From IMG/VR virus record IMGVR_UViG_2698536301_000001: a DNA stretch of 7,277 nucleotides; one strand, 5' to 3'. Shown here in pieces: positions 3,001 to 6,000 of the stretch. The stretch's first letter is position 1; each line of letters starts with the position of its first letter. The position numbers were made by a program. This DNA is from a virus. Its lineage: Duplodnaviria > Heunggongvirae > Uroviricota > Caudoviricetes.

Positions 3001-6000
3001 CAGCCCGCCTCTCTTACGTCACGTCCTGATTTCTGGTTTTTTCGGGTTCGCCGTAAAAGGTTCCACATTCGCCATGCTCCGCATCACGTTTCTTTTTCTG
3101 ACCTGCCGGACGTCGCACCGTGATGTACTCCGCCTTTCCCAAGCGAACCAGCACCTCCGCACACGGCTGTGCCACATCACGGATATCCCCGGCCCGGGCA
3201 TCATGCGTGCCCTGCAGATATCGGATCTTTGCCATAACCTGTTACGGGAGGCGCACGCCTCCCGTCCTCCTTATCAGACTCAGCCGCCGGACGCACTGCC
3301 GTAGTTCACTCCGGTGATCACCGCCACCGCCGCGGTACGGCGACGACGCCAGTTGATCCAGCGCTCCGCACGGATGGCCACGCTGCCTGTCTGGAACATG
3401 GAAACCAGCTCCACCGGGGACGGCGTGGTACTGTCGCCGGTCGGCTCAGACTGCATTTCCAGTGATGCCTCGCGGGACATATCCACTGCCACGCCGCCGT
3501 CATCCGCCAGATAAATATCCGGGGCATTCACCAGCACCAGCTGGTCACCCACGTACTGGGAGACAATCACCGGCAGCCCCTGGAAGGAGCCACCCAGCAG
3601 GGTCATGTCCGGGTATTCCTTCTGACCCAGCGCATTTTTACGCATGGACAGTGCCAGGGCATTGGTGCTGGACATCAGCCAGACCGCACCGGTGGGCTGC
3701 AGGTTTGCTGCCACAAACTGTCCAAACGCAGCCTCTGCATCCGCATCCGGGTTACCGGTTGATGCCGTGCCCTTCACATCATGGGTGATGGACGCCGGGG
3801 AGACATCTGCCACTGCGGCTTTTTTCGGGTCCACAAAGTCTGTATCCAGACGCGCCACCACCGCTTCCGCCAGCGCATTACGGACCAGTGCATCAGCAGC
3901 CGGACTGGAAAAACGGATCAATTCTTCCGTCAGTACCGCAATGGCCGACACCTTCGCATGACTGAAGGTGATGGATTCAAAATCAAACTTCGTCAGGGGT
4001 TTTGCCTTACCCTCACCCACCCAGCCGGCAGCACCGCCGGACACCTGGGCGTGCACACGGATATTGAACGGCACCTGACGAAGTGCAGGGATCCCGCCCT
4101 GACCAAATCGCCCGATAATGGTCTGCGGACGCAGGTAATCAATAAAGTCCTGTGCGTATTCCTGATATTCAGACAGGCTGCCTGCCCACTGCGGATCCGT
4201 GGTGGTCCCCGCGCCCACTGCCGATTTCAGGACATGATGCAGACGACTGTCATCCGGATACTGACGACGGGCCACTTCCAGGGCTTCAGATCGGACGCCT
4301 TTAGCCGCAGCCAGCGATTTGGCAAAGCGGGCGAAGCCAATCCCCTTATCCAGTTTCTGCTCCACACGGATCACCGGCGCAGAAGCCACCGCGGCCACAT
4401 TCCCGTTACCGGCCTGTTTCACCGGCTGCGCCGTGGCGGCCTTACCGGCTTCCAGTTCACGCAGGCGCTTCAGGTGCGCATCCACCTGACGGATTTCCGC
4501 TGCGGTGTTGTCGTAATGCTCTTCCTCCTCCACATCCAGCGTGCGCCCTTCCTCTGCGGCTTTGGTCATGACCTCCTCAAGGGAGGCTGCCAGCGCTGCA
4601 CGCTTGTTTTCAAAACTTTTAATCTGTTCGCCAATATTCATTATGGTCTTTTCCTTATGAAAAACGGTTGTTGACTGTGCCGCAGCGCCGGCAGAAGATG
4701 CGATTTTCACCACCGGTTTCCGGTTGCCGGACGCGGCAGAAAACGGGCGGTCGTAAGATTTAATGGTCCGGATGGTGCATTCCGCATTCGCGGGCACGGT
4801 GACGGCAGACACCTCCATCAGTTCCCAGCGCAGAAAATGCAGTCCGCCTCCGTCCAGAAAGGTGTATTCATGGGGACGGAAGCCCACGGACAGCCCCCTG
4901 ACCAGCCCGGTCTTAATGGCCGCCCAGACCTCATCCAGCCGGGCAGCCAGTTGCGACGGCATATCCGGTACGGGCTTCACCAGTGTTGCCGTGATTTCCA
5001 GCCCTTCGCTGACCCGGCGCACCGTACACTGCCCCACCGGGCGGGAATGGTCATGCTGCCAGAGAAACGGGATCGCACTGCCAAACTCCGCGCCCTCCGG
5101 TTCCAGGATGTCACCATCCCGATCCGGAGAAGGCGTTGACGCAATCCCGGTGATCACCCGTTCATCCTCACTGAAGGATTTCACCGTCAGCAGGGAACAG
5201 GCCCGTTTAAGAGTCACATCAGCCTCCTGAAAATAAAAAAACCGCCGGAGCGGTTCGTGATGGTTACAGTGTGAACAGGGTTATATGAAAAAAACCGCAT
5301 ATTCTTTCTTTTTCGGTTCCGGGTTAAGGGACATCAGGGAGACCGCATTGAACAGCGCCATCAGCGGGTCAATTTTTCCCCGTCCACTGGCCTGTTTGGT
5401 GATAAGAATGGCGTTACCTTTAGGCTCCACCCGGGCATTGCCGACACACCAGGCCATCAGGGGCTGGTCACCATGCACCAGCACCCCTTCAGCCAGTTTG
5501 CGCTCGGTGGTTTTAATGGCCCCGCCCAGTTTCCAGCCCTGGCTTATCCCCACCACAATTCCGTCGGGGATCCCGGCTTCCGCCAGTGAATCCAGAATCT
5601 GCCCCACCCCTGACGGGTCAATACCGATATGGTCCAGTAACTCAGCCTCATGAATGCGACGCACATATTCCGCCACTTCCGCCGTGTCATCCCCGACACG
5701 CCGGACAATGGTCATATCTCCACAGGCAACAAGATCCTGAAACCGGGACGCCTCGCTCTTCCGTCGGACCACCGCGGTTTCATGCGCCCAGGCATGGCCC
5801 CAGCCCAGCCATTCGCGGGTCTCCCGGTCACGCCCAATCACATACATCCCCAGCAGATCATCCAGCCCTCCGCCGTCAATCCCCACCGTCACCACATCAG
5901 CACGACGCAGGATATCGTCCAGGCTGATACAACGGCCCTGCTCTTCCCAGAAATCAGCCCCCGCCCAGCGGTCAGAGCGCAGGGCAAGACCAATTTCCAC

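Follow-up and report, generated by a model that had tools for sequence, protein, structure and literature searches.

The head-assembly genes considered here lie in a stretch of 7,277 nucleotides from a tailed phage (Duplodnaviria; Heunggongvirae; Uroviricota; Caudoviricetes; IMG/VR record IMGVR_UViG_2698536301_000001). This whole stretch is referred to below as the window, and positions are numbered over its full length. The window is a minus-strand, late-operon head module, and the gene of interest in it is a single open reading frame (ORF) of 645 amino acids in which a prohead protease is followed, through a linker and without a stop codon, by an HK97-fold major capsid protein. Protease-capsid fusion as such is already known. 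The new part is comparative evidence for an internal translation start, located exactly where the capsid protein begins, from which the capsid protein could be made alone. Judged from sequence, the locus is probably a nested two-product head-assembly gene that encodes both the protease-capsid fusion and the capsid protein by itself.

The fused protease-capsid reading frame

The features of the ORF and of the start signals in and before it are as follows.

5223..5228 (-): upstream Shine-Dalgarno (SD) sequence AGGAGG, 5 nucleotides (nt) before the GTG start; duplex energy -10.3 kcal/mol
3280..5217 (-): full-length ORF, 645 residues, comprising prohead protease, linker, delta-like domain and HK97-fold capsid protein (Pfam, TIGR01554; full-length match to phrog_617)
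4756..5217 (-): S78, or HK97-type, prohead serine protease domain, about residues 1-154 (PF04586 and AlphaFold2)
5055..5053 (-): H55, invariant in a 58-sequence alignment
4890..4888 (-): S110, invariant in the same alignment
4815..4813 (-): E135, invariant in the same alignment
4642..4788 (-): disordered, hypervariable linker, residues 144-192, which carries the putative internal ribosome-binding site (confidence score, pLDDT, below 50; rich in insertions and deletions in homologues)
4652..4657 (-): internal SD TAAGGA (AAGGA at 4656..4652), with a 10-nt spacer to the internal ATG; duplex energy -6.2 kcal/mol
4641..4639 (-): internal, in-frame candidate start codon ATG, residue M193
4600..4664 (-): AT-rich, weakly structured island at the internal start (GC content and folding energy)
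3280..4641 (-): nested ORF from the internal ATG, which shares frame and stop codon with the full-length ORF and encodes a 453-residue capsid protein, delta domain included
4369..4641 (-): delta-like scaffolding domain, residues 193-283, with helices at 195-223 and 229-262 followed by disordered residues 268-283 (AlphaFold2 secondary structure and pLDDT)
3283..4368 (-): HK97-fold capsid body, residues 284-645 (PF05065, TIGR01554, Foldseek)

The full-length ORF extends from the GTG at 5217..5215, a start codon kept in close variants of the E. coli clade, to the TGA at 3282..3280, and has no internal stop codon. Reading of the ORF together with the Pfam and TIGR01554 matches bears out the original prediction that protease and capsid protein occupy one frame from GTG 5217. 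The linker, the ATG at 4641..4639 and the AAGGA about 10 nt upstream of it are likewise exactly as that prediction had them.

The protease is recognized by PF04586 (Peptidase_S78) over residues 48-152 at 34.7 bits, above the cutoff of 21, and falls below the threshold of the narrower TIGR01543 model (46.5 versus 59). Invariance of H55, S110 and E135 among 58 sequences that span 36-78% identity is consistent with an active serine protease; H55 and S110 probably correspond to His65 and Ser114 of HK97 gp4. The capsid part matches PF05065 (Phage_capsid) over residues 386-635 (53.1 bits, cutoff 24.2) and TIGR01554 (HK97 major capsid protein) over residues 204-584 (78.1 bits, cutoff 27.5), and the best Foldseek matches of the capsid body in the PDB are the capsids of Bxb1, HK97 and D3, with E values of 3.5e-15 to 1e-10. 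An AlphaFold2 model that took the 58-sequence alignment as input gives a β-rich protease domain at residues 4-139 (pLDDT about 90), a disordered linker at residues 144-190 (pLDDT below 50), of which residues 174-192 read SSAGAAAQSTTVFHKEKTI, and two long, high-confidence helices (195-223 and 229-262) that form a delta-like hairpin beginning two residues past M193. A second disordered stretch at residues 268-283 is, by analogy with HK97 gp5, the likely zone of maturation cleavage, and the HK97-like body begins at residue 293.

The same uninterrupted ORF, at a query coverage of at least 80% and mostly at 95% identity or higher, is present in 1252 of 5426 complete E. coli genomes. At 97-99.8% identity it occurs in many Shiga toxin (Stx)-converting or lambdoid siphophages, among them BP-4795, 2851, YYZ-2008, 1717, JLK-2012 and phi330, the last of which forms plaques and carries the ORF at 99.7% identity; for the proteins of these named phages the range is 98.9-99.8%. 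Full-length fusions also account for about 130 of the 150 best representatives of clusters formed at 50% identity, at 38-54% identity to the window ORF. In annotation, the gene has long stood in these phages (as ORF56 in BP-4795) as a "putative major head protein/prohead protease", and the Stx and lambdoid phage records (Pankowvirus, Marienburgvirus) as well as RefSeq show a single coding sequence (CDS), labelled "phage major capsid protein" in RefSeq, with no nested capsid CDS. An NCBIfam model, NF045541 ("prohead protease/major capsid protein fusion protein"), describes the same domain architecture, and the window ORF matches it partially (residues 48-287) at 54 bits against a cutoff of 525. 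In a few database proteins of about 1080-1094 residues (P0001, P0123 and P0132) the protease-capsid match begins near residue 441-444, and P0001 also contains a TerL ATPase domain, giving an apparent TerL-protease-capsid fusion; long proteins of this type probably result from frameshifts or from errors in gene calling.

Purifying selection on the internal start

In the window, the internal start lies in the most open part of the message. The AT-richest 45-nt segments of the ORF include it, with a GC content of 27-29% against 60% for the ORF as a whole. The minimum free energy of the 61-nt segment at the start is -6.0, compared with -18.65 ± 4.93, and the eight least stable segments all lie at codons 190-199. 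In the E. coli clade the upstream GTG is found in a more structured region (-12.0) and the internal ATG in open RNA (-6.0), a difference that fits a fusion product made in the minority. As a rule for the family, the idea that a weak upstream GTG sets the ratio of products was rejected, as 39 of 42 lineages have ATG at the upstream start; the GTG may still matter within the E. coli clade. Another in-frame candidate, M217 (4569), is preceded by GAGGAGG just 2 nt before its ATG, a spacing that is too short, and it has no prominence in the aligned column profile of SD energy. A search for σ70-like promoters in 3000..5400 found none, and an internal promoter in the style of UL26.5 of herpes simplex virus (HSV) was rejected.

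For comparison, 80 IMG/VR loci of 41-100% identity were fetched, of which 77 are uninterrupted fusions. A non-redundant set at less than 80% identity comprises 42 loci, the window and 41 relatives. Every one of the 77 fused loci has an in-frame ATG, or GTG in 4 of them, 4-7 codons before a conserved E-Q-I motif that opens the delta helix, so that the internal start codon specifies the first residue of the delta domain; where valine occupies the position, in those 4 loci, its codon is GTG every time. Across the 645 aligned columns of the 42 loci, mean SD duplex energy is lowest in the M193 column, where it reaches -8.43 kcal/mol (mean over columns -2.54, standard deviation 1.46), a stronger pairing than at the annotated ORF start as well. 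A four-base SD core at positions -17 to -5 is present in all 42 loci, compared with a per-codon background of 13.4%, and purines make up 88-98% of bases at positions -12 to -9. The open mRNA context is found in the homologues as well (mean z = +1.79), with z above 0 in every locus and 74% of loci in the top decile.

The peptide that surrounds these signals is poorly conserved: the 12 linker residues before M193 share a pairwise identity of only 14% in the 42 loci. The SD is spelled by varied residue pairs in different codon phases (KE, KG, QE, EE, LE, RS, TE, RR, KD and PE), and therefore the constraint is on the nucleotides or the RNA and not on the peptide. Taken together, the internal-start signal across relatives is far beyond chance, and the data show that the internal start codon, its SD and the open mRNA context are under strong purifying selection. 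A search of the homologues for any lacking an internal start signal, which had been proposed as a way to refute the internal start, turned up none, and the retention of start and SD supports the suggestion, made from the window alone, that two products could come from one frame.

Relatives in which protease and capsid protein are separate place the same signals at the same point, the sole difference there being a stop codon. Burkholderia phage vB_SBP39 has the same gene order, with protease and capsid as separate genes joined by caaTAAGGAttccttacgcATG. Among the IMG/VR loci, L059 is unfused only through an in-frame TAA that directly abuts the ATG, in L001 a TAA overlaps the SD, and in L072 a 70-nt spacer carries its own GGAGA-ATG. 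The stand-alone capsid proteins of relatives (P0200, P0229, P0251, P0257 and P0264, and those of L001, L059 and L072) begin at the equivalent of residue 193 or 194 of the window ORF. In a rough neighbour-joining tree built from the capsid part, the unfused members fall at various places among the fused clades; lineages therefore pass from one state to the other when one stop codon is acquired or lost. As read from these sequences, the ribosome-binding site (RBS) and ATG stay in place as the stop codon comes or goes.

An out-of-frame TAA (4655..4657, minus strand), within caTAAGGAa in the window, matches the stop-overlapping SD caaTAAGGAttc of the unfused Burkholderia homologue. It also occurs in several enterobacterial relatives (ATTAAAGGA, AATAAGGA), if not in all of them, and is most simply the 5' end of the extended SD TAAGGAGGT.

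A probable nested head-assembly gene and its alternatives

The closest known systems are nested genes for protease and scaffold. In the C/Nu3 genes of phage lambda, UL26/UL26.5 of HSV-1 and gp17 of the archaeal virus HFTV1, a long ORF encodes an N-terminal maturation protease and an assembly domain, and a documented in-frame internal start yields the assembly domain alone, in excess. In all three, the protease is held inside the procapsid by the C-terminal part that both products have in common. The window ORF has the same arrangement, with the protease domain N-terminal to the assembly domain, and it is best read as analogous to the lambda and HSV genes. It differs from them in that the inner product of the C/Nu3 type is a dedicated scaffold that leaves the capsid, whereas the inner ORF of the window encodes a complete major capsid protein with a built-in delta domain; the protease, to judge by the ORF, would be tethered to a shell subunit instead of to a scaffold. 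HSV further uses a separate promoter for the inner product, unlike the window, where no promoter-like site was found in 3000..5400. From the standpoint of the component proteins the likeness is to HK97 gp4 and gp5, with which the window ORF shares the S78 protease family, the HK97 fold and a helical delta domain that stands at the N-terminus of the capsid protein and takes the place of a scaffold; as in HK97, the protease would remove that domain. HK97 uses two separate genes; a C-terminal tail brings in its free protease by non-covalent contact, and its delta domains are removed after assembly. The window has a single ORF, with a covalent link in place of the tail. The conserved nested capsid start is a variation on the known design of nested protease and scaffold genes. 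To a specialist in phage assembly it would be expected rather than shocking, and it is well supported and testable.

Under the nested reading, ribosomes that initiate at GTG 5217 would produce a polyprotein of about 70 kDa consisting of the S78 protease, a flexible linker, the delta domain and the HK97-fold capsid protein, and those that initiate independently at the internal TAAGGA-N10-ATG (4641) would produce a delta-capsid protein of about 50 kDa in the same frame. By analogy with HK97, both products would co-assemble through their identical delta and capsid parts, such that a subset of shell subunits would carry the protease tethered inside the prohead, the covalent tether replacing the non-covalent C-terminal targeting tail of stand-alone proteases such as HK97 gp4. 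After assembly the protease would cut off the delta domains, the linkers and itself, at sites presumed here, to leave only the mature capsid protein. How strong the two initiation sites are relative to each other would presumably determine the stoichiometry, and this scheme may bring about a low ratio of protease to capsid protein and covalent delivery of the protease.

Several points weigh against the nested reading. The SD of the window is moderate: among all codon positions its -6.2 kcal/mol falls at the 16th percentile, and it is outscored by several other in-frame starts in the window. The window SD taken alone is not significant beyond chance; the case for the internal start rests on the comparative data. 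There, counts such as 42 of 42 exaggerate how many events are independent, because the lineages are related. The internal site could be covered by ribosomes that began upstream and are translating through it, and a capsid made entirely of fusion protein is physically possible. A mass-spectrometry study of virions that includes phi330 gives peptide maps for podoviruses only.

If the internal start were not used, only the full-length fusion would be made, the ATG and SD would be a neutral relic of formerly separate genes, and the protease of every subunit would later be cleaved off. Such a relic is conceivable in that unfused relatives exist and fusion requires the loss of just one stop codon, the SD of the window's clade is moderate, and an all-fusion prohead is, by a rough estimate, not sterically impossible. 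A relic would be expected to decay, yet none of the 42 non-redundant loci, down to 41% identity, has lost the start codon or the SD, and this within a linker that has itself diverged to 14% identity with many insertions and deletions. Valine occurs at the site solely as GTG, the open, AT-rich mRNA context is conserved, and the M193 column has the best SD score of the alignment. In light of these observations the relic explanation is unlikely.

The conserved K/Q/E-E/G...M motif might instead act at the level of protein, as a site of self-cleavage by the protease or as a hinge that frees the capsid protein, and not as a translation signal. Its location is a disordered linker, the usual kind of target for maturation proteases, and P-K/Q-E-G is common to many relatives. 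The residues over the SD nonetheless vary (KV is found in addition to most of the pairs given above), GGAG, AGGA or AAGG is kept in different codon phases, and the distance of the SD nucleotides to the ATG is fixed. Moreover, unfused relatives have this signal before the capsid gene, and there it must be an RBS. A purely peptide-level role is for these reasons quite improbable, and cleavage and initiation at the motif are not mutually exclusive.

Still another proposal is that free protease arises when ribosomes slip by -1 on GTT TTT C and stop at the out-of-frame TAA (4657..4655), giving protease alone together with capsid protein from the internal start. A T-run does precede the TAA that overlaps the SD, and at the matching position the unfused Burkholderia phage reads caaTAAGGA. 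The TAA and T-run are, however, missing from many close relatives (e.g., L019, L021, L024-L026 and L028) and from all GC-rich relatives, there is no canonical in-frame X XXY YYZ heptamer, and TAAGGA just forms the 5' portion of the full SD; such slippage is very improbable. Finally, the idea that the fusion is an artefact of assembly or sequencing, or a pseudogene, with a genuine stop codon hidden (the original prediction had raised a sequencing error as an alternative), is excluded because the ORF is uninterrupted in about 1250 independent E. coli genomes and in dozens of phage isolates, plaque-forming phi330 among them, and most of the cluster representatives are full-length fusions.

Genes that encode protease, scaffold and capsid protein together are described in the actinophage literature as an unusual but recurrent feature. 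Nine actinophage genes annotated as "major capsid and protease fusion" were examined (L084-L092), from RRH1, Rahul, McGonagall, SallySpecial, EricDab, BlueFeather, Whytu, Adaia and Decurro. An additional membrane domain stands at the N-terminus of some of these fusions, a Pfam search with RRH1 gp07 gave no match, and the comparison with the window ORF is one of architecture only. RRH1, Rahul, McGonagall, BlueFeather, Adaia and Decurro each have exactly one internal ATG that is preceded by an SD, lies in open RNA and follows soon after the protease domain. Overall the scan for internal starts gave 7 matches in the 9 fusion genes, 6 of them at the protease/capsid boundary, versus none in 3220 control codons of neighbouring genes. 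Here too there are points on the other side: thresholds for the scan were chosen after seeing the data, Whytu has only a weaker candidate, and EricDab and SallySpecial have none at the boundary, their strongest internal site preceding the protease, after an N-terminal domain with two transmembrane segments, a membrane domain already noted by others. Multi-product nested genes may be common in small actinophages, and as independent cases of a nested start the actinophage fusions are suggestive only.

An internal capsid start is not discussed in the actinophage fusion papers searched, and no description of a nested capsid start in such fusions was found in the searchable literature, which mostly leaves out subscription journals, so that a prior mention is possible. 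The review of Aksyuk and Rossmann contains nothing on fusions. A preprint on cyclic oligonucleotide-based antiphage signaling (CBASS) was considered and rejected as a parallel, as it concerns a protease-scaffold and not a capsid fusion.

A broader proposal, put forward tentatively and with somewhat less than even confidence, is that protease-capsid fusion genes are generally nested two-product genes, in enterobacterial prophages and independently in small actinophages, with dosage set by competing starts and with a switch between tethered and free protease through one stop codon next to an unchanging RBS. If true in general, the fusion would be a minor, stoichiometrically controlled shell subunit, and thousands of CDSs annotated as "major capsid protein" would have the wrong N-terminus for the abundant product. 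Closer to hand, about 23% of complete E. coli genomes and many Shiga-toxin phages carry this head module, which is annotated throughout as a single 645-residue "major capsid protein". Were the nested start used, the abundant capsid precursor would be the 453-residue product and the annotation would need two CDSs; the puzzle of how actinophages build a shell from a protease-scaffold-capsid polyprotein would have a simple, testable answer; and the principle known from lambda and the herpesviruses, in which the protease is a minor N-terminal extension of the assembly protein, would extend to phages with the scaffold inside the capsid protein. The locus would also offer a natural system in which protease dosage is tuned by one RBS or stop codon, useful for the engineering of HK97-type capsids and encapsulin-like containers.

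Neighbouring genes and other features of the window

The remaining genes of the head module are the following.

6939..7220 (-): fragment of the terminase small subunit, TerS
5281..6942 (-): TerL
3014..3235 (-): conserved ORF of 73 residues (phrog_829), function not assigned, between the capsid and portal genes
645..3068 (-): portal, 807 residues
322..648 (-): Ad1 head-tail connector

The protease-capsid gene precedes the portal gene, unlike the order in HK97. A small ORF is found in Burkholderia phage vB_SBP39 at the position that matches the 73-residue ORF.

The 807-residue "portal" is a fusion too: in BP-4795 this DNA is divided into ORF58 (portal, 454 residues) and ORF59 (461 residues, phrog_1289), with the junction ...GGGGGATTCTGAAAAAATGAATGAAC. 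A run of G residues at 1718..1723 has six in the window versus five in BP-4795, and by this difference the portal enters the frame of ORF59; an ATG after GAGAAA (M455, 1704..1706) is still present in the fusion. In one genome, where the protease-capsid ORF and that of the window are 99.9% identical, the portal gene bears the RefSeq flag "frameshifted". The homopolymer difference could be a polymorphism, an error or a slippage site. The C-terminal part of the portal fusion contains a 162-nt tandem repeat (2.3 copies, 1111..1490) and a weak CBM_5_12-like match.

Between the TerL stop codon and the SD of the fusion ORF lies a terminator-like hairpin, GAACCGCTCCGGCGGTTT followed by TTTTATTTTC (5239..5256, minus strand, with a T-run to about 5229). 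It is the only such site in 3000..5400, and the count is not enriched, with 1 found versus 2.2 expected from shuffled sequences. Within the terminase small-subunit fragment there is a 27-nt tandem repeat at 7006..7059, present in two copies that match at 85%.

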